Shown here: positions 9,330 through 47,762 of the stretch, piece by piece
How the letters are laid out: every line of letters begins with the position of its first letter
How positions within the stretch are numbered: position 1 is the first letter of the stretch
Assembly (NCBI GenBank): GCA_963790025.1
Contig: CAWBMP010000004.1
Location: 256,001 to 320,000 of the forward strand
DNA: 64,000 nucleotides
Source of the DNA: Nitrospirota bacterium
GTDB lineage: Bacteria; Nitrospirota; Thermodesulfovibrionia; Thermodesulfovibrionales; Dissulfurispiraceae
Reading direction: 5' to 3'
Program-made: the position numbers and the translations under genes
Notes under the pieces: generated by a model
Told to the model about the DNA's origin: nothing
The model's database searches: none
The model's input: the letters and a program-made list of their open reading frames with translations, nothing else

Positions 9330-10196
9330 ATGAGGCAGGACGCAGGCAATGAACGGGTAGAGCGGCTGTCGGTCCGTGTAAGTCACGAGGAATTTGAAAT
9401 GATCAGGGATAATGCTGCATTATACGGCCTGCCCGTAGCAACGTTTATAAGAGCAGCAGGTATAGGAGAGCTGCCGAAGAAGAAAAAATCGGAATGCGGA
9501 ATAAATCGTCCCGTCAAGAGTACTGTGGAGCTTCTCAGGAATTTCAGCCTTTTCGCCGGCCTTGACGAGGAAGAACTTCTGAAGACTCTGCACTGTATCA
9601 CAGTAGAAAAATTCAAGAAGAACGATATTATTCTCGTAGAGGGGGACTCGAATCGTTTCATGTACTATATCCTCACTGGCAGAGTAAAAGTTTTACAGGT
9701 CAGCGAAGAGGGAAAGGAACTCATTCTTGCTATGCATAGTGCCGGTGATTTTTTCGGAGAGATGTCCCTGATCGACGGCAGTACGGCATGCGCCACAGTG
9801 GCTGCAGCTGATCATTGCACAATTGCACTCATCTCGAAAGCAAATTTCTTTTCCTTGATTTATACTCAAAAAAAGATCCTACGCAATGTTCTCCAGACCT
9901 TCTGTCGCCGGATACGCGCCTCGAACAGGACAGTAGCAATGATGACCCAAATGAGCGCGGCCCATCGTGTACGAATGCTTTTGCTCATGCTTTCCGAAAA
10001 GCACGGGAAAATGCTGGACGACACTGTTGTGCTGTCGATCCTTGTAACCCATCAGGATATCGCCGATATGACGAGCCTTACACGCCAGACAGTAACAAAG
10101 ATCATGAACGAACTGAAAGAGGAAGGCGTAATTACAGTGCAGGAAAACAAGCAAATAAGGCTGAATAAATCTTTCTTCATCGTGGGCGCCGGTTAA
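9330..10196 (+). CDS. CRP/FNR family regulator with N-terminal ribbon-helix-helix (MobC-like) segment
   Basis: AGGAGG RBS before ATG 9330; GDFFGEMSLID cNMP domain; THQDIADMTSLTRQTVTK HTH; N-terminal RLSVRVSHEEFEMIRDNAALYGLPVATFIR has an RHH pattern. Confidence 0.85.
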   Translation: MRQDAGNERVERLSVRVSHEEFEMIRDNAALYGLPVATFIRAAGIGELPKKKKSECGINRPVKSTVELLRNFSLFAGLDEEELLKTLHCITVEKFKKNDIILVEGDSNRFMYYILTGRVKVLQVSEEGKELILAMHSAGDFFGEMSLIDGSTACATVAAADHCTIALISKANFFSLIYTQKKILRNVLQTFCRRIRASNRTVAMMTQMSAAHRVRMLLLMLSEKHGKMLDDTVVLSILVTHQDIADMTSLTRQTVTKIMNELKEEGVITVQENKQIRLNKSFFIVGAG

Positions 10197-34800: not shown

Positions 34801-34829
34801 AAAACAGCTGCAAGCAGCAATCGTATCAT
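31821..34829 (-). CDS. M1-type metalloaminopeptidase + ChaN-like domain + PDZ fusion protein
   Basis: Signal peptide; HEILHQW..NWAEG zinc motif; IVYVGEFHD, GMEMF, QILWDESM and LAGGGH ChaN-like motifs; AGLRKGDVILSVD PDZ. Confidence 0.82.
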   Translation of the reverse strand: MIRLLLAAVLMFLLVPHTSEAVERSAPKYPEYSLDVSFDISQSKILGTATINAPAHKELVIRTGDLIIKEVRNGRNKIEAAARDGILKLYPAGDGNIVIVYEGVFKGGREGHDSNYGVVTNTIDERGISLTELWYPLINNLCIYDVRATLPEGFTALSEAEEIRKSVINGTAVFAFDFPHPVGGINFIASREYAEVRDTVNGIDLYAYFFREDRSLAGTYIEHAKKYIRLYEDMLGKFPYKRFSIVENFLSSGYSMPTYTLLGREVVRLPFIVETSLGHEILHQWLGNLVYIDYEKGNWAEGLTSYLADHLYEEQKGKGWEYRKQILIDYQSYVNPTNEFPLKDFIGRSDFSSKAIGYGKAAMVFHMLRRAMGDDAFNHALRDLVRERRFQRTSWDDIRRIFEKDSVKDWGWFFRQWVDGTGIPDFFIEAFDMKPNGSKYEASFTIEQKSGMYTLELPLEVFYPGGKEEHFSVHVDKIKTPVTLALSAMPEKVVIDERYDVARRLDTKELPPVVAGMIGAEKPVMVLPVKNQEIYSTVIRAFREKGGVEKLPSEIRDSDMKFTTLIVLGNDNHVAERLYGKIKTDAGFSVTVRHNPWNSRNVVGIIDGKSREEVDAAFGKIFHYGKYSILLFDKGRNVFKKVEETERGINVEQKDQTFAVDVSTVKPFAEVIPGISGKKIVYVGEFHDRFSNHTVELEVIKALHRKNKNTAIGMEMFQRPFQKVLDEYIAGTIDERTMLKGTEYFSRWGFDYNLYRPVLTFARDERIPVIALNLKREITDKVSKAGIDSLSEEEKRVIPSQMDFSDEDYRERLHEVFQKHSGANGMKFDFFYQSQILWDESMSQAIDDFLNNNPDFRKDGQMVVLAGGGHIAYGSGIPKRTFRRNGLDYTIVLNDFDVDKDIANYLVYPKPEYGAVSPKMMVLLKEADGRVTIAGFPEGSISEQAGLRKGDVILSVDDVPVSTSDDIRIHLVFKKKGDPLKVKVLRKGFLSGEVEKVFTFLL

Positions 34830-34915
34830 AATTACAATTATATACTATTTGCAGGCAGGCAGTTTTCCCTGGTCTGATATATAATTAAAGTAATTAAAAA
34901 GTGAGAGGTGATACG

Positions 34916-36034
34916 ATGTCAAAGGTCTTTTTTGCTACCGCACGTGTGGGAAAGTGGCGATACCGGGACAGTATGCCCGGAAAGCTGGAGCATCTTCTGC
35001 AGGAAGTCCGGCTTGCCGCCTACTTCGAGCCCGATGAATGGGTGGCAGTAAAAACGCATTTCGGCTCTGAAGGCGCTCACCGTGTCGTAAGGCCGGTATT
35101 TCTGGCAAAGGTCGTGGAATCACTCAAGGCTCTCAGGGCCAAACCATTCGTAACCGATACCGTAAGAATAAAGGGCCTGGACTACCTTGAAGTGGCCAAC
35201 AGAAACGGGATCAATCACCTTTCGGTCGGGGCCCCTGTCGTTATTGCCGATGGGCTTTATGGAAATGACAACATTATGGTAAAGGCAGGAGAAATACTGG
35301 GAGACATTGCCGTTGCATCTCTCATATATGATGTCCCGGCGATGGTAGTGTGCTCCCATGTGAAGGGGCATATCAATGCGGGATATGCAGGGGCCATAAA
35401 GAACATCGCAATGGGTGCTGTAAGCAGCAGCCATCGCCACTGCGGCTGGAAATGCGGACGCGGAGCCATGCACACAATAGGAGAGGGAAAGCTGGTGTGG
35501 GACGGCGATAAGTGCACCTTATGCTACCAATGTGAAGAGGTCTGTCCTCTGGATTGCATCGAATTTAAAGACAATATCCTCACCTACGATAACGAACGAT
35601 GCTGGCGTTGCGGCAGATGCACGAGGGTCTGTCCTGAAGGAGGACTGACACTTCCCGGCGATGATCAGCTTTTCATGAAATCGCTGGCCGAGTCGACTAA
35701 GGCGGTACTCGGCACATTCAAACCCAATAAAATCATCTATATAAATTTCCTCACCGAGATCCAGCCGGAGTGCGATTGCATGCCCGCGGCAGAGGTCCCC
35801 GTGATACAAGACCTGGGTATCCTTCTGTCCGATGATATTGTTGCTATCGAGCAGGCTTCCATTGATATGCTGATGAAAGCCAAACCACTGCCCTCATCGA
35901 TCGCTGATAGCGCAGAGATCAGGGACGGAGATGATATATTGCTAAAGCTCCACGATAAGCCATATATCATTCAGGTCGAAGAAGCTGAGCGGCTGGGGCT
36001 TGGGAGCAGGGATTATGAGTTGATCGAATTATAA
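34916..36034 (+). CDS. DUF362 family Fe-S protein with 2x[4Fe-4S] ferredoxin domain
   Basis: VKTHFG, SHVKGH..GAIKNIAMG, two CxxCxxCxxxCP motifs, PECDC. Confidence 0.85.
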   Translation: MSKVFFATARVGKWRYRDSMPGKLEHLLQEVRLAAYFEPDEWVAVKTHFGSEGAHRVVRPVFLAKVVESLKALRAKPFVTDTVRIKGLDYLEVANRNGINHLSVGAPVVIADGLYGNDNIMVKAGEILGDIAVASLIYDVPAMVVCSHVKGHINAGYAGAIKNIAMGAVSSSHRHCGWKCGRGAMHTIGEGKLVWDGDKCTLCYQCEEVCPLDCIEFKDNILTYDNERCWRCGRCTRVCPEGGLTLPGDDQLFMKSLAESTKAVLGTFKPNKIIYINFLTEIQPECDCMPAAEVPVIQDLGILLSDDIVAIEQASIDMLMKAKPLPSSIADSAEIRDGDDILLKLHDKPYIIQVEEAERLGLGSRDYELIEL

Positions 36035-38402: not shown

Positions 38403-38960
38403 ATGGGCCAGGTAATTCCACTACGGGACAAAAATAATATAAAAGCGGCATTCGAAGGCGATTTCACCAATATGCTTAAAGATGTGGCCGAGGTCAAAAG
38501 GGAGGCACTGGGTACGGAAGACAACAACATCTTTCACCTGAACGTGAGTTTCGAGGACTTGTTCAAGGCCAAAATAGGCTCATTTATTATAGACCACAGG
38601 CTTATGAATGCGGACCTGTTTCGCTGCAGCCTTTATGTGGCCCATGTCCTAGGTGAAACCCTTTCAAAAAAAATAACAAGCTTTTACATAACAGATTATT
38701 TGATCCGGGGTATCGAAGAGGAAGCGCCGGATATTTTAAAAGAAGGCGCCGACCTTTGTTGCATCCTCTGCATTTTTTTTGAAGAAAGGCGCAATTGGAG
38801 AATGACGCGTGCAGGGGATTATGTAAAAATGGGCATTCGACTGTATTCACTCTACTATTCAATGACACAGAAATTGATAGGATGGTGCATGAGCAGGAAT
38901 TTTGAAAATATTACCTCTATAACAAGAAGGTGCGTAGAGGATTTTGAGAGAAAGGGATAA
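38403..38960 (+). CDS. Hypothetical protein
   Basis: GGGAGG RBS, 185-aa ORF, no recognised motif. Confidence 0.7.
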   Translation: MGQVIPLRDKNNIKAAFEGDFTNMLKDVAEVKREALGTEDNNIFHLNVSFEDLFKAKIGSFIIDHRLMNADLFRCSLYVAHVLGETLSKKITSFYITDYLIRGIEEEAPDILKEGADLCCILCIFFEERRNWRMTRAGDYVKMGIRLYSLYYSMTQKLIGWCMSRNFENITSITRRCVEDFERKG

Positions 38961-39011
38961 CTTGATATCCTTTATTGAGTCAAGTATAGACTAATGTTTT
39001 GGTAGAAAGCC

Positions 39012-39050
39012 TGACAAAGCTAAACCCTTTGCAAAAGGGGGGCGGAAAGC
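39012..39050 (+). ncRNA. 5' half of a c-di-GMP-I (GEMM-I)-like riboswitch aptamer, apparently truncated
   Basis: GACAAAGCTAAACC-CTTT-GCAA-AAGG-GG-GCGGAAAGC matches the GEMM-I P2 pattern with a GNRA loop; no adjacent P3 arm seen. Confidence 0.5.
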
Positions 39051-39081
39051 GGGTAAAATATTTTGGGGAAAACATTTTGGT

Positions 39082-39110
39082 TTGACGTTAATGCCAAAGT
39101 GTCATATAAT
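39082..39110 (+). promoter_or_regulatory. Near-consensus sigma70 promoter
   Basis: TTGACG (39082-87), 17-nt spacer, TATAAT (39105-10). Confidence 0.75.
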
Positions 39111-39116
39111 TAAATT

Positions 39117-39353
39117 AGAGAGAGAGAATTTTCTCTAATTCTTTCTCCATGTATGGGTGTTTGATACGGGAGAAAGACGCCCCGAAAGGGGGAGAGAGGG
39201 CTGTAGAAGACAGCCCGTGGTTAGCTGACGGGAAGTACATTTCAGCAACTTATGGTATATCCGCCGGCCAGCCGAAGAGGTTACCGGAAGTTTCCGGCGA
39301 CCTTTAAAAAACGAGGTAGAAGGCTTAAGTGCCCTCTACCTTTTGTTTTTTTT
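39117..39353 (+). ncRNA. Candidate structured small RNA (~235 nt), family unknown
   Basis: Bounded by promoter and intrinsic terminator; contains a chain of hairpins. Confidence 0.55.
39314..39353 (+). terminator. Rho-independent terminator
   Basis: AGGTAGAAGGC-TTAAGT-GCCCTCTACCT followed by a T tract. Confidence 0.8.
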
Positions 39354-39434
39354 GGGGAGCGAATTGCCAGTTGCAAATATTAGAATATTGGCATATATTA
39401 TAGTTAGTAGCATGGGTATAAAAAGAGAACTTGA

Positions 39435-39597
39435 AGTACTACAGTCCATAAATACGGTGTAGCACCGAGAACTTCGATGCGCCGCGCCAGCGAGGCGCAG
39501 GACTGAGGCGTACCACTTGGTACGGCGAGGGACTGCAACAAAGCTGGAACTGATTCAGCGGCGATCGAATGAAACCGTATTTATGAACTGTAGTACT
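39435..39597. mobile_element. MITE-like non-autonomous element (163 bp)
   Basis: 24-bp terminal inverted repeats AGTACTACAGTCCATAAATACGGT / ACCGTATTTATGAACTGTAGTACT (1 mismatch); GC-rich interior with GCGTACCACTTGGTACG hairpin; no transposase. Confidence 0.75.
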
Positions 39598-39619
39598 AAA
39601 TATCAGGGAGGTGACTTAC

Positions 39620-39988
39620 ATGAAAGCTATTCTCGCTGCAGTGTTGGCGGTGCTGTTTATGGTTTTTCTTGCAAGTGTCGCCATTGCTGATGAGTTATAT
39701 CCTGTCAGGGTCTATGAGCAGTCTCCGGGACCAAATACCATTAGAGGTTCGGTAGTGTCTGTAGACCGGGAAGCAGGGCAGTTTATGGTGAAACCGACAA
39801 ATCTACCCACTCTGTTGCCTGGAGCAATGACACTCTCGACGGACAGTATGACAAAAGTGAAGATGTGTGGCAGCAGCAAGACTTTTGAAGATATAAAAGT
39901 CGGTGAGAAGGTGGAAGTTCAATATCAGTCTAAAGAATATGGCAAACCCATTGCTGAAGATATTAACGTCAGAACTAAAACATGTTGA
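39620..39988 (+). CDS. Small secreted protein, OB-fold-like
   Basis: Signal peptide (AIA/DE), IRGSVVSVD...IKVGEKVEVQY pattern. Confidence 0.7.
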   Translation: MKAILAAVLAVLFMVFLASVAIADELYPVRVYEQSPGPNTIRGSVVSVDREAGQFMVKPTNLPTLLPGAMTLSTDSMTKVKMCGSSKTFEDIKVGEKVEVQYQSKEYGKPIAEDINVRTKTC

Positions 39989-40012
39989 AGCGGACCTTTA
40001 GGCAGATAGACC

Positions 40013-40053: not shown

Positions 40054-41961
40054 TCAGGTGATCTCTTTGCTAAGCAGTATATCTGTTTTCACATGAGCCA
40101 TCGTATAAATCTCATTTAAATACTTGCTGATATCGACCTGCTGCCTGCCAATGTATGGTTTCAGGTAGTTAACTGAATGCTCAATCATCTTTTTATATAC
40201 AAGATCATTGAGGAAATATGATGGGAAATCAACTATGCAGTTGTTAAATGCCGAATATAACTGCTGGTCACTATAATCCATGAAATCAAATTTACTATAG
40301 GTCACAATTATCTTACTCTCAAAATCGCTCCACAACTTGATAAAGGCATTCATATGAATAGCAGGGAGTTTGAGGATGTCTTTAAAAATAATCAGATCGA
40401 AATAGGCAAAGTCTTTTAGATACCACTGATCGTCAGATAAGTTACTGCATGATATTACAATAAATGTCTTTGAATTCAGTCCAAATCCTTCAGAGTCAAT
40501 GATCTTGCCGAGAATAAAATGTGCATAAGAAGCGTCCTCATATCTTAACGCCATTCTTTTTAAATTCATAATGTTGAAATCCCTGAAAGCCTGCAGCAGA
40601 TATCCGAACCTTATGTCCCTGCCAAAGTAGTATATAGGATCAAATGAACTGGATGGCAAGGAAGGTCTTGCGAGATGTTCCTTAACGGCAAGGTTATTTG
40701 AAATAATCTTTGCCTCATTCACTGATTCATCAAGAAACTCAGCGATCTTTTTGTCATCCATTCCCTTGCCCTTGAGCCTTTTTGAGAGACTAAACCCGCT
40801 CTCGGCGTCTCTGTCCATAACGAAAACAACAGTGCGGAAGGTCAGGTATGCGATATAAGAAAAGACAAGTCCGTTCTTGGTAAGTTTTATTCTGATATCT
40901 TTTGGAAGGGAATAGTGCGGATTGAGTGTATTATGCGCCAGGACATAACCATTATAGAGTTCCTCAAAAGCCCCCAGGACCTTTTCAAAATGGTATTTGC
41001 CTATTTGAATCTGATCTGCCCCGAATAATGCCCTTTCGTATGACAGTGATACCTCTGAATATAACCTGAATGGGGATTTATAATACTTGTCCAGTATCCC
41101 GCTGCTTTCGCGTATCAACAGTTCGACCCCAACTGTCTCAGAGGAAAGAAGGGCGTCACCCTCGGGTTGAATATCGAAAAAACCAAAGAAACGGCACAAC
41201 TTTCTAAAAACTGCAGACTTTAGAATACTATAAGCCTCATAGTCCTCAAACATGGAGACGGCGTTCTTGGACTGGAAAAACCTTTTGTGACCATAGATAC
41301 GCAAAATCTCACGAACTTTAGTATGGCCCAGCCTGTTTATGGCAAAGTCAATACTCACTTTTTGAATTTTGATGCCGGCATCTGAACTTACCGCTTTTGC
41401 AATCATCATGTCCTTCAGTAAGGGCAAGCTTTCCTCTTTTTCCCTGGCAGTTCCTCCGTCTGGTTCTCCATCTTTTGCCTTTAACGCCTCCATATCTGTT
41501 CTTCTTTTTAATTCCTCCAGACTGGAGATATCATCTATATATGCCCCTATCTTTTTCATATTCGGCTCATGGCTGTCCATTTCCAGGATAAGATTCACCA
41601 TTTTGGTCAGGATCTCATCTTTTTTATATTGCTGGATGGCTTTTTCCGGTATGCTCATCTGAGGCGGCGCCAGCACTTCTTTTGGCTTTTTAATCCTCTT
41701 GACAATAAATGCAGGGTCGTTAAAGGCCCCTGAAAATTGCAAGCCGATAAAGTCGTTGTTTTCCCACCGCACCTCTGTTTTTATTTCCACGGTGGCGATG
41801 TTGAAGTTTAATGCCGGGATTTTGTTAGTAAAGCCGGTTGCTTTCCTTATCTTCAGGCCTTTTCTACTGACCTCAACAACGCTACCAATGCCTTCAACCG
41901 GGATCTCATCGATAATATATCTATCGCATTTTCTCCGGTTGAGCGGTTTTTTAGTTTCCAT
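40054..41961 (-). CDS. PilZ-domain protein with HDOD-like central region
   Basis: RRKCDR and EVSRKG PilZ-like motifs, EVRW..IGLQF; SIDFAINRLG resembles HDOD. Confidence 0.6.
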   Translation of the reverse strand: METKKPLNRRKCDRYIIDEIPVEGIGSVVEVSRKGLKIRKATGFTNKIPALNFNIATVEIKTEVRWENNDFIGLQFSGAFNDPAFIVKRIKKPKEVLAPPQMSIPEKAIQQYKKDEILTKMVNLILEMDSHEPNMKKIGAYIDDISSLEELKRRTDMEALKAKDGEPDGGTAREKEESLPLLKDMMIAKAVSSDAGIKIQKVSIDFAINRLGHTKVREILRIYGHKRFFQSKNAVSMFEDYEAYSILKSAVFRKLCRFFGFFDIQPEGDALLSSETVGVELLIRESSGILDKYYKSPFRLYSEVSLSYERALFGADQIQIGKYHFEKVLGAFEELYNGYVLAHNTLNPHYSLPKDIRIKLTKNGLVFSYIAYLTFRTVVFVMDRDAESGFSLSKRLKGKGMDDKKIAEFLDESVNEAKIISNNLAVKEHLARPSLPSSSFDPIYYFGRDIRFGYLLQAFRDFNIMNLKRMALRYEDASYAHFILGKIIDSEGFGLNSKTFIVISCSNLSDDQWYLKDFAYFDLIIFKDILKLPAIHMNAFIKLWSDFESKIIVTYSKFDFMDYSDQQLYSAFNNCIVDFPSYFLNDLVYKKMIEHSVNYLKPYIGRQQVDISKYLNEIYTMAHVKTDILLSKEIT

Positions 41962-45080: not shown

Positions 45081-47762
45081 ATGATAAAGGCAACTATAGA
45101 CGGCAAAATAATTGAAGTTAAGGAAGGCACCACTGTTTTGGAAACAGCAAAGCTGCTGGGCATTTCAATACCAACGCTATGCCACCATCCCAAGCTGACC
45201 CCGACCGGCGGCTGCAGGCTCTGCATCGTTGAGATAAAGGGGTTTCAGCGGCCGGTCACATCGTGCACAACGCCGGTGACCGAGGGGATGGAAGTAACAA
45301 CATCATCCCCTCTCATCGCGGATTTGCGGAAGAGTATGCTCGACCTTATTCTTTCGGACCATCCGCTCGACTGCCCGAGATGTATACGTGGCGGCGACTG
45401 CCAGCTGCAGGATGTGGCTTTTTTATACGGGGCGAAAGAAAACAAGTTCCCGGGTGAAAGAAGGGAATACACAAAAATTGACATCAACCCCTTCATCTCA
45501 AGGGACATGGAAAAGTGCATTCTTTGCGAAAGGTGTGTCAAGATTTGTGATGAGGTGCAGGGTGTAGGGGCCATCGATATTGCTTACAAGGGCTTTAAAT
45601 CAAAGATATGTCCGCCATACGAAAACCCCCTTGATTGCGAATTTTGCGGTCAATGCGTATCCGTGTGTCCCACCGGCGCCCTTGCCGGAAAGATGTGGGA
45701 CCGCAAAGACAAGAGCTGTGATGAAAAACAGGTCGATACAGTCTGTCCTTATTGCGGCACAGGCTGCCATATCACGCTGCATGTGCAACAGGACAGAATC
45801 ACGAAGCGCGACAGGGTCATACGCGTAACTTCAAGAGATGACACCTGGAACAAGGGCTTGCTGTGTGTAAAAGGGAGGTTCGGTTACAAATTCATCAACA
45901 GTCCGGACAGGCTCACAAAGCCGCTTGTAAGGAAAAACGACCGCTTCGAAGAAGTTTCGTGGGAAGAGGCCTATGAATACACTGCAAAAAGGCTGAACGA
46001 GATAAAGGCCGCCTACGGTCCCGATTCAATCGGCGGGTTATCATCGGCCCGTTGCACAAATGAAGAAAATTATGCCTTTCAAAAAATGATAAGGGCCGCG
46101 GTGGGGACGAACAATGTCGACCACTGCGCCCGACTTTGACACGCGCCAACGGTGGCCAGTCTGGCTGCCATATTCGGCTCTGGCGCGATGACAAATTCCA
46201 TCGAGGAAATCGAAGGAATGGAAGTCATATTCATCATTGGCTCAAATACCAAAGAAACGCATCCGGTTATCGCCAACAGGATGATTAAGGCATACCGGAA
46301 GGGGGCGAAGATAATAATAGCCGACCCGCGTAACGTGCCGATGACCCGTTTTGCCGATACGGTACTGAACCTGCAACCTGGTACTGATATAGCACTGATC
46401 AACGGGATCGCCCATGTCATTATCAAGGAAGGGCTTGAGAATAAGACCTTTATCCAGGAAAAGACAGAGGGCTTTGAGGAATGGAAGAAATTGCTGGAGG
46501 AATATACTCCTGAATATGTAGAAAAAATAACCGGAGTGAGCCAGGAAAATATCATAAAGGCCGCACGTCTTTACGGCGGCTCCCGGAAGGCCGGCCTTTT
46601 CTACACCATGGGTATAACGCAGCATACCTGCGGCACAGATAATGTGGCCGCAGTTGCAAACCTGGTCACGCTCACTGGCAATATTGGACGGGAATCTACA
46701 GGGGTGAACCCTCTAAGGGGACAGAACAATGTCCAGGGGGCTTCGGATGCAGCCTGCCTGCCCTCTGTTTACCCGGGATACCAGAAGGCTGACGATCCCG
46801 ATATAAGGGCCAAATTTGAAAAGGCATGGGGAGTGCCGCTCGCCCCAAAATCAGGCCTGACAGCAACACAAATGATACCGGCAGCTCTCGAAGGGAAGAT
46901 AAAGGCACTCTATATAATGGGAGAAAACCCGGTCATTACCGATCCCAATACGCATCATACAGTTGACGCCCTCAACAAGCTCGCTTTTCTGGTTGTCCAG
47001 GATATCTTCCTGACAGAAACAGCCCAGCTTGCTGACGTAGTACTGCCTTCAACATGTTTTGCCGAAAAAGAAGGCACTTTCTCCAATACTGCGAGAAAGG
47101 TCCAAAGAGTAAGAAAGGCTGTTGATCCTCCTGGCGACGCCCGTTCCGACCTCTCCATCATCATGGAGATGTCACGCCGGCTCGGCTATCCAATGCACTA
47201 TAAATCTCCGGAGGACGTTCTGGTTGAGTTCGGCCAGGTATGGCCCAATCTTGCGGGGATAACGTACAAGCGTATCGACAAGGTCGGCATTCATTGGCCT
47301 TGCCCTGACAAGAATCATCCCGGCACCCCTTATCTCTACAAAGCGGGGTTCCCCGTAGGAAAGATACGTTTCTCTCCTATCATGTTCTCTCCACCGGCCG
47401 AGGTGACTGACAACGAGTATCCGTTTATCCTGACGACCGGAAGAAACCTGTACCAGTACCACTCCGGATCAATGACCAGACGGGTACCCGCAATCGAGGC
47501 CCATGCCGGCGAGCCTTATGTCGAAATCAGCGCCAAAGACAGCGGAAAGCTCCAGGTAAAGGATGGGGATATCTTGGCTGTCTCTTCCCGGCGCGGCACA
47601 ATAAGATTAAAAGCGAGGGTCACTTCGAAAGTCACGGAAGGTACGGTATTCATACCTATGCATTACGCCGAGGCCGCGGCAAATATGATTACAAACGACG
47701 CCCTCGATGCAAAGGTCAAAATACCTGAATACAAAGTTTGCGCTGTAAAAATAGAAAAGTGA
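45081..47762 (+). CDS. fdhA: Formate dehydrogenase alpha subunit, selenocysteine-containing (TGA 46137-46139 = Sec)
   Basis: NuoG-like Fe-S N-terminus, CPYCGTGC; DHCARL-TGA-HAPTVA continues in frame; PLRGQNNVQG; SECIS-like hairpin after the TGA. Confidence 0.93.

Follow-up and report, generated by a model that had tools for sequence, protein, structure and literature searches.

We tentatively identified an orphan, stand-alone gene for a non-coding small RNA (sRNA) of ~235 nt (~39117 to ~39350), which we predict to be lineage-specific, in the 64-kb window, the whole stretch of Nitrospirota DNA that was analyzed (64,000 nt). The candidate occupies a 650-nt spacer flanked by a conserved 185-aa Nitrospirota gene and by a secreted-protein gene with its own promoter, both of them oriented on the + strand. 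A near-consensus promoter (39082–39110) would start transcription at ~39117, the RNA would fold into a tight row of hairpins (H0 to H5) and transcription would end at an intrinsic terminator, at ~39350. The RNA is probably regulatory. We infer its transcription, its action in trans and its mode of action, for which our guess is base pairing via purine-rich unpaired stretches (the 5′ AGAGAGAGAGAA and a GAGAGA linker at 39192–39197) or the binding of a protein. The candidate is a plausible new sRNA without a family and ordinary in kind, and the notable feature of the locus is a riboswitch-like element overlapped by the near-consensus promoter. A preliminary description of this DNA had listed the promoter, five hairpins, the terminator and a 52-codon open reading frame (ORF); each of them is present in the sequence at the position given there, and the interpretation placed on them is partly supported.

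A promoter and an intrinsic terminator bracket the candidate

The promoter scan identified TTGACG (39082–39087) and TATAAT (39105–39110) on the + strand, separated by a 17-base spacer. This near-consensus sigma-70-type promoter (39082–39110) matches the consensus at 11 of 12 positions and has a predicted start at ~39117. A count over both strands of the 64-kb window (128 kb) returned only four sites with at least 11/12 matches, and the one at 39082–39110 is the only such site on the + strand. The hairpin series begins 7 nt downstream of the promoter. Another 11/12 site (TTGACA-18-TTTAAT, 34894–34922, − strand) lies ~60 nt upstream of a 1002-aa gene starting at 34829, indicating that consensus sigma-70-type promoters occur in sensible places in this genome.

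The terminator (39306–39353, + strand) was recognized from the terminator scan, pair probabilities and stem energy. It comprises an A-run, a stem (39313–39342) and a U-run with 12 U in 13 bases, reading UUUUGUUUUUUUU up to 39353. The stem has an energy of −16.4 kcal/mol on the + strand and −19.1 kcal/mol on the − strand, where the U-run is reduced to 6 U. Because an A-run precedes the stem and a U-run follows it, the terminator looks bidirectional; the scan tool reported it on the − strand only, owing to a single A–C mismatch on the + strand. The promoter, the longer U-run and the orientation of both neighboring genes all favor the + strand for the candidate.

The promoter scan, pair probabilities and stem energies therefore support the appearance of a non-coding transcription unit with a strong promoter and a terminator of its own, as the preliminary description had proposed. 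A promoter and an intrinsic terminator around a non-coding stretch are the features of a stand-alone sRNA gene, and both were found. The proposal that the unit stands alone holds as far as this bracketing goes, but the −35 box is located inside a stretch (39010–39099) that matches the c-di-GMP-I riboswitch clan below threshold, so the bracketed unit is possibly a partial picture of the transcript.

The candidate folds into a series of hairpins

Pair probabilities and fold energies place six hairpins or hairpin domains on the + strand ahead of the terminator. The first (H0, 39112–39141) is an addition to the hairpins already described; it spans the predicted start site and is followed by UUCUUUCU. 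In a transcript from upstream, H0 has 11 bp and −10.4 kcal/mol; a start at 39117 leaves 7 bp (−6.4 kcal/mol). This shortening hints that longer transcripts from upstream also matter. H1 (39140–39177; P 0.95; −15.8 kcal/mol) pairs UCUUUCUCC with GGAGAAAGA in an outer stem of 9 bp (39140–39148/39169–39177; minimum free energy [MFE] fold and pair probabilities) that encloses an inner 5-bp stem. H2 (39180–39191; P 0.47; −8.0 kcal/mol) is the small hairpin CCCC-GAAA-GGGG (39180–39183/39188–39191), and H3 (39198–39216; P 0.99; −11.2 kcal/mol) is a 7-bp hairpin of sequence GGGCUGU-AGAAG-ACAGCCC (39198–39204/39210–39216).

The H4 domain (39218–39274; −15.9 kcal/mol) has two competing folds according to the pair probabilities in both contexts: a long interrupted helix (39218–39274) and a short hairpin (39224–39246). 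The fourth of the hairpins described previously (GCUGA/UCAGC, 39224–39228/39242–39246) thus exists in one of these folds but gives way to the longer helix in the other. H5 (39276–39305; P 0.95–0.97; −15.5 kcal/mol) closes the body with the sequence AGAGGUU.CCGGA-AGUU-UCCGG.GACCUUU (7 + 5 bp). The linkers between H0 and H5 measure 0–2 nt, with the GAGAGA linker at 39192–39197 as the single exception.

This hairpin structure is real beyond shuffled controls. None of 200 dinucleotide shuffles folded as well as the candidate, and the fold z-scores against dinucleotide shuffles were −6.48 (+ strand) and −8.26 (− strand) for 39115–39353 and −4.87 (+) and −5.33 (−) for the body without the terminator (39117–39305). 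The scores are similar on both strands and, as a result, do not identify the transcribed one. We also scanned 1013 + strand segments of 189 nt with 10 shuffles each, which makes the ranking noisy (1st percentile, z −5.2); the segments starting at 38998 and 39061 ranked fourth and fifth by fold z.

Genomic setting of the candidate

The right-hand limit of the RNA unit is set by the promoter of the downstream gene (39620–39988, + strand), which appears in the ORF list and encodes a 122-aa secreted protein with a weak Pfam match to DUF5666. This promoter (TTGCAA-17-TATATT) and a palindromic operator span positions 39363–39405 on the + strand. The 122-aa protein has five homologue clusters, and a profile search of genome contigs with a six-sequence alignment retrieved two loci (L001 and L002), both from Nitrospirota MAGs. 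Upstream of the homologue, each locus has the promoter/operator arrangement seen at 39363–39405 (~9914–9956 in L001 and ~9924–9953 in L002). The similarity to the window ends at ~39360 and the sequence to the left is unrelated. The conserved promoter of the 122-aa gene and the end of the similarity at ~39360 thus make the RNA unit separate from the gene. Furthermore, both related loci keep the promoter without the RNA, so the candidate is not a conserved leader of the 122-aa gene. Its position between the 185-aa gene and a gene with its own promoter leads to the same conclusion for both neighbors.

The operator is an imperfect 22-bp palindrome (TGCAAATATT-AG-AATATTGGCA) that lies over the −35 box and spacer of the 122-aa gene promoter and is kept in all three genomes despite their different upstream neighbors. 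It is likely to be the operator of a repressor. An insertion of ~165 nt (approximate limits, ~39437–39602) separates this promoter from the ribosome-binding site of the 122-aa gene. It folds into a single long hairpin with almost perfect pairing (z −7 for 39354–39625), and L001 and L002 are without it. The insertion could be a miniature mobile element or a 5′-UTR regulator that was acquired.

Upstream, the ORF list contains the 185-aa ORF (38403–38960, + strand), which has a GGGAGG ribosome-binding site. The protein has at least 40 homologue clusters (44–94% identity); six of them carry organism names, five of the Nitrospirota type and one labelled Alphaproteobacteria. The family is well conserved and has four invariant cysteines (Cys75, Cys119, Cys123 and Cys177). 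Searches of Pfam, NCBIfam and PADLOC assigned the protein to no family, and none of the PDB sequences matched it. Its AF2 model, built with 27 of 40 homologues plus the protein of the window, is all-helical (pLDDT 76); it matched no PDB fold at E ≤ 0.001 and only unnamed clusters in the Atlas.

This setting also accommodates a somewhat unlikely alternative in which the region has no separate RNA function. The hairpins would then be a long structured 3′ untranslated region and terminator zone of the 185-aa gene, or a spacer shaped by palindromic insertions, and the promoter would be a chance match or give rise to pervasive transcription. Indeed, the terminator scan found no + strand terminator between the stop codon of the 185-aa gene (38960) and 39313, and the 185-aa transcript probably runs to the terminator at 39313. 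The ~165-nt hairpin insertion, absent from L001 and L002, is in the same spacer and indicates that selfish palindromic DNA exists in this genome; the spacer also contains a 14-nt duplication. Equal folding of both strands is what DNA palindromes would produce. Furthermore, no relative of the RNA was detected in related or mobile DNA: nothing similar to 38960–39360 was found in L001 or L002 with blastn, nhmmer or tblastn, and 38960–39420 had no match in the plasmid and phage DNA collections.

The absence of the RNA from L001 and L002 is a counterpoint to the sRNA reading as well, though both loci also lack the upstream 185-aa gene. The same holds for other proteins of the window, as none of the 185-aa, 635-aa, patatin-like, methyltransferase and radical-SAM proteins was found in L001 or L002. 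What argues against a functionless spacer is the promoter, one of only four such sites in 128 kb and situated precisely on the 5′ border of the hairpins. In addition, we found no further copies of the candidate region in the window or the two related loci, and thus no evident repeat family within these 103 kb.

A riboswitch-like match overlaps the promoter

With the Rfam covariance models, positions 39010–39099 of the + strand, immediately upstream of and partly within the promoter, also matched the c-di-GMP-I riboswitch clan (CL00126), although below threshold. The best model was c-di-GMP-I-GGC (RF03167), and more models of the clan overlapped at the same position. The match reached 34 bits, short of the gathering score (59), with E-values of 4.3e-6 for 801 nt and 3.4e-4 window-wide. 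Only two Rfam matches reached E ≤ 0.5 in the whole window, this one and SECIS_3. In 39 kb of related genomes, Rfam returned no matches at E ≤ 0.1, an indication that the E-values behave well. The match overlaps the −35 box of the 39082–39110 promoter by 18 bases, and either the match or the promoter may be a chance occurrence.

Several features of the clan are recognizable in the match. The P2 hairpin (CCCUUU-GCAA-AAGGGG, 39025–39040) has a GNRA-type cap, a high posterior probability in the alignment and a pair probability of 0.82, and the AAAG.. and ..GGAAAGC junctions were both aligned. In c-di-GMP-I riboswitches, the third helix (P3) docks with the P2 tetraloop via a receptor. Here P3 was unaligned, as the model skipped 43 nt of the match; in a constrained fold, only an A/U helix with irregular pairing formed in its place, and no tetraloop receptor is visible in the skipped 43 nt. 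The repeat search located an A/U-rich tandem duplication with a 14-nt unit (GGGGAAAACATTTT, 2.1 copies) at 39051–39080, within the part that does not fit the aptamer model. We therefore regard 39010–39099 as a possible divergent or decayed aptamer and do not class it as a member of the family.

A constrained fold closes the aptamer region with an 8-bp helix (38997–39004/39092–39099) at −23.9 kcal/mol, 2.9 kcal/mol above the MFE of −26.8 kcal/mol. This closing helix starts exactly where a weak promoter-like site just before the aptamer-like element (TTGATA-17-TATAGA, 38962–38990, + strand) would initiate transcription, near 38997. The site was read by eye (9/12) and does not appear in the promoter scan, since its −10 hexamer does not end in T. 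Such sites are no more frequent than background (4 found versus 3.6 expected).

These elements could belong to a longer non-coding RNA of ~355 nt, an unlikely reading in our judgment, in which a divergent c-di-GMP-I-type aptamer at the 5′ end is followed by the hairpins and the terminator. Transcription would start near 38997 from TTGATA-17-TATAGA or reach the region by read-through from the 185-aa gene. The riboswitch-containing or riboswitch-gated RNA would detect or sequester a cyclic dinucleotide, or the aptamer would set the amount of full-length RNA, and the internal promoter would add a short, ligand-independent form. The window-wide E-value of the clan match, the GNRA-capped P2 with both junctions aligned and the coincidence of the near-MFE closing helix with the expected start of the weak promoter are consistent with this reading. 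So is H0, whose full 11 bp and U-rich tail form only in transcripts from upstream. However, the score remains far under the gathering score, the third helix is replaced by a skipped stretch with an A/U-rich duplication, and the promoter proposed for the long form is weak, no better than background sites. For the aptamer region, folding gave a z of only −1.5 to −1.7, and neither the folds nor reading of the sequence revealed an alternative pairing that would connect the closing helix with H0 or with the terminator.

A nearby 635-aa gene (40054–41961, − strand; ORF list, no Pfam family) provides a further lead in the same direction. The first 100 residues of its product contain, by eye, an RxxxR...ExSxxG-like motif, and the nearest Atlas clusters are PilZ (score 0.90). 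Hence, the protein is a possible c-di-GMP receptor encoded near an aptamer-like element, which we treat as a lead only. Neither Pfam (no match at E ≤ 10) nor a PDB sequence search confirmed the PilZ assignment, and the single-sequence AF2 model of the protein (pLDDT 38) is too low in confidence for a fold search.

More doubtful still is a specific form of the ~355-nt RNA. Its GEMM-I-type aptamer would be divergent, with the third helix rebuilt, and would be joined to 250 nt of arrayed hairpins and their own terminator, with no gene following; the nested promoter would yield a ligand-blind short form. If so, the cell would make sensing and non-sensing isoforms of one RNA.

Coding potential, CsrA binding and RNA family searches

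The 52-codon ORF (39149–39307, + strand) that runs through the hairpins is not supported as a gene. The 22 bases upstream of it are pyrimidine-rich and have no Shine-Dalgarno (SD)-like motif, while three neighboring genes each have GGGAGG, and its ATG start codon is inside H1. These observations agree with the preliminary description, which had noted an ORF with no ribosome-binding site and a start within a stem. Pfam assigned no family to the ORF, and a search of 5.8 billion proteins returned a self-match only. Hence, neither a ribosome-binding site nor a conserved frame, the marks of a small-protein gene, was found. We also compared the 62-residue open frame to a representative set of 1.84 billion proteins and recovered itself (P0047) and a 549-aa repeat protein (P0048, E 2e-9). 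We judged P0048 to be spurious as a homologue, as this E-value sums six near-identical repeats; a single repeat aligns to the ORF with 25.8 bits and an E of 7e-5 in one pairwise comparison, far from significant library-wide. The restriction of ORF-like proteins to this genome among the protein sets fits a non-coding region and, equally, a region unique to this genome. It is thus very improbable that the ORF is translated as a small protein, despite its open frame and the presence in public sets of the predicted protein P0047, which has a full-length match only to itself.

Equally improbable is a sponge RNA that titrates CsrA/RsmA, which the preliminary description had raised from the GGA motifs. 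The candidate has four GGA (39169, 39191, 39231 and 39286), one of them in the predicted loop region of H4 and another atop H5, but this is the chance frequency (4.8 ± 1.9 in shuffles, 75% of which have at least four). The many enriched GGA displayed in hairpin loops that characterize CsrB/RsmZ-type sponges are thus not seen, no Csr/Rsm family matched 38900–39700 at E ≤ 10 in Rfam and no k-mer recurs significantly. A motif with three occurrences within 321 nt (GTAGAAR) was dropped after the k-mer test (p ~0.06 with 500 dinucleotide shuffles).

The candidate has no match among known RNA families. A scan of the whole 64-kb window against Rfam 15 at gathering thresholds returned no matches. At E-value thresholds, the matches in 38900–39700 other than that to the c-di-GMP-I clan were at chance level (E 0.5–9), and we rejected them (sraA on the − strand, a trypanosome snoRNA, GNAS-AS1_3, GlsR6 and atpB). 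Furthermore, Rfam detected none of the tRNA, tmRNA, RNase P, 6S and SRP families at E ≤ 10 in 38900–39700, and ARAGORN found no tRNA or tmRNA genes in 38500–40000. These results bear out the earlier impression that the RNA is not a tRNA, tmRNA, RNase P or 6S RNA.

We also used RNAduplex to pair the candidate with 46 translation-initiation regions of the window. The best score (−55.5 kcal/mol) is uninformative for target prediction when placed next to those of 10 shuffled RNAs (−50.3 ± 2.2 kcal/mol, minimum −54.8 kcal/mol).

Comparison with known RNA systems

The preferred reading, a stand-alone sRNA, places the candidate closest to the class of trans-acting sRNAs. Like them, it has a sigma-70-type promoter, a length of 200–250 nt, stacked hairpins, a terminator with a U-tail, an intergenic location and no translatable ORF. 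Unlike them, it has no family match and consists of seven consecutive hairpins that leave almost no single-stranded seed. Most base-pairing sRNAs are less structured than this. The location directly behind the 185-aa gene also recalls DapZ and MicL, sRNAs that derive from the 3′ part of a gene, have a promoter inside or downstream of it and use its terminator. The candidate probably shares the only terminator of the 185-aa gene. However, its promoter is ~120 nt past the stop codon rather than within the coding sequence, and the searches on the 185-aa protein gave no hint of a functional link. To our knowledge, very few regulatory RNAs have been described in the Nitrospirota, a largely uncultured phylum. 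If the candidate RNA is real, it would be a new family without an Rfam relative.

For the ~355-nt RNA, the closest precedent by analogy is the merRNA of Bdellovibrio bacteriovorus (PMC3627812). That RNA is 445 nt long, contains a c-di-GMP riboswitch that no ORF follows, is massively expressed by measurement and was proposed to act by binding c-di-GMP instead of controlling a gene (PMC3627812). The likeness is in a c-di-GMP-riboswitch-type element on the 5′ side of a non-coding RNA of several hundred nt, with no conserved ORF after it and no conservation beyond a narrow lineage. The two differ in that merRNA contains a bona fide riboswitch, whereas the element described here is a sub-threshold match with an unmodelled third helix and a strong promoter in the 3′ part of the aptamer.

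Compared with c-di-GMP-I (GEMM-I) riboswitches of the clan CL00126, the element aligns at the GNRA-capped P2 and at the junctions on both its 5′ and 3′ sides. It departs from them in its sub-threshold score, in the unaligned A/U-rich duplication at the position of P3 and in the lack of a coupled expression platform in the folds; furthermore, a terminator and then a separate, conserved promoter precede the next gene. A literature search for c-di-GMP riboswitches in Nitrospirae found no paper, and the passages of publications in which c-di-GMP-I-GGC appears merely list the model among the clan. If the element binds a cyclic dinucleotide, it would be the second case, after the Bdellovibrio merRNA, of a riboswitch within a non-coding RNA instead of a gene leader, and the locus would also have an unusual nested promoter. 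If neither the RNA nor the aptamer holds, the region would be an ordinary structured spacer.

Other genes of the window

The second Rfam match of the window, SECIS_3 (46134–46192), is located on an in-frame TGA (46137–46139) that splits a formate-dehydrogenase-like gene (45081–47762) into two ORFs and reads HCARLUHAPTV. It scored 45.9 bits, below the gathering score of 63. Because of its location on the in-frame TGA of a formate dehydrogenase, the match is plainly real despite the sub-threshold score, and the sequence identifies the gene as a selenocysteine gene rather than a broken one. We also observed very large genes with many diverged tandem repeats (periods of 195, 342 and ~300–400 nt) between positions 10000 and 20000 of the window; from their sequence, these look like genes for giant repeat-containing surface proteins.
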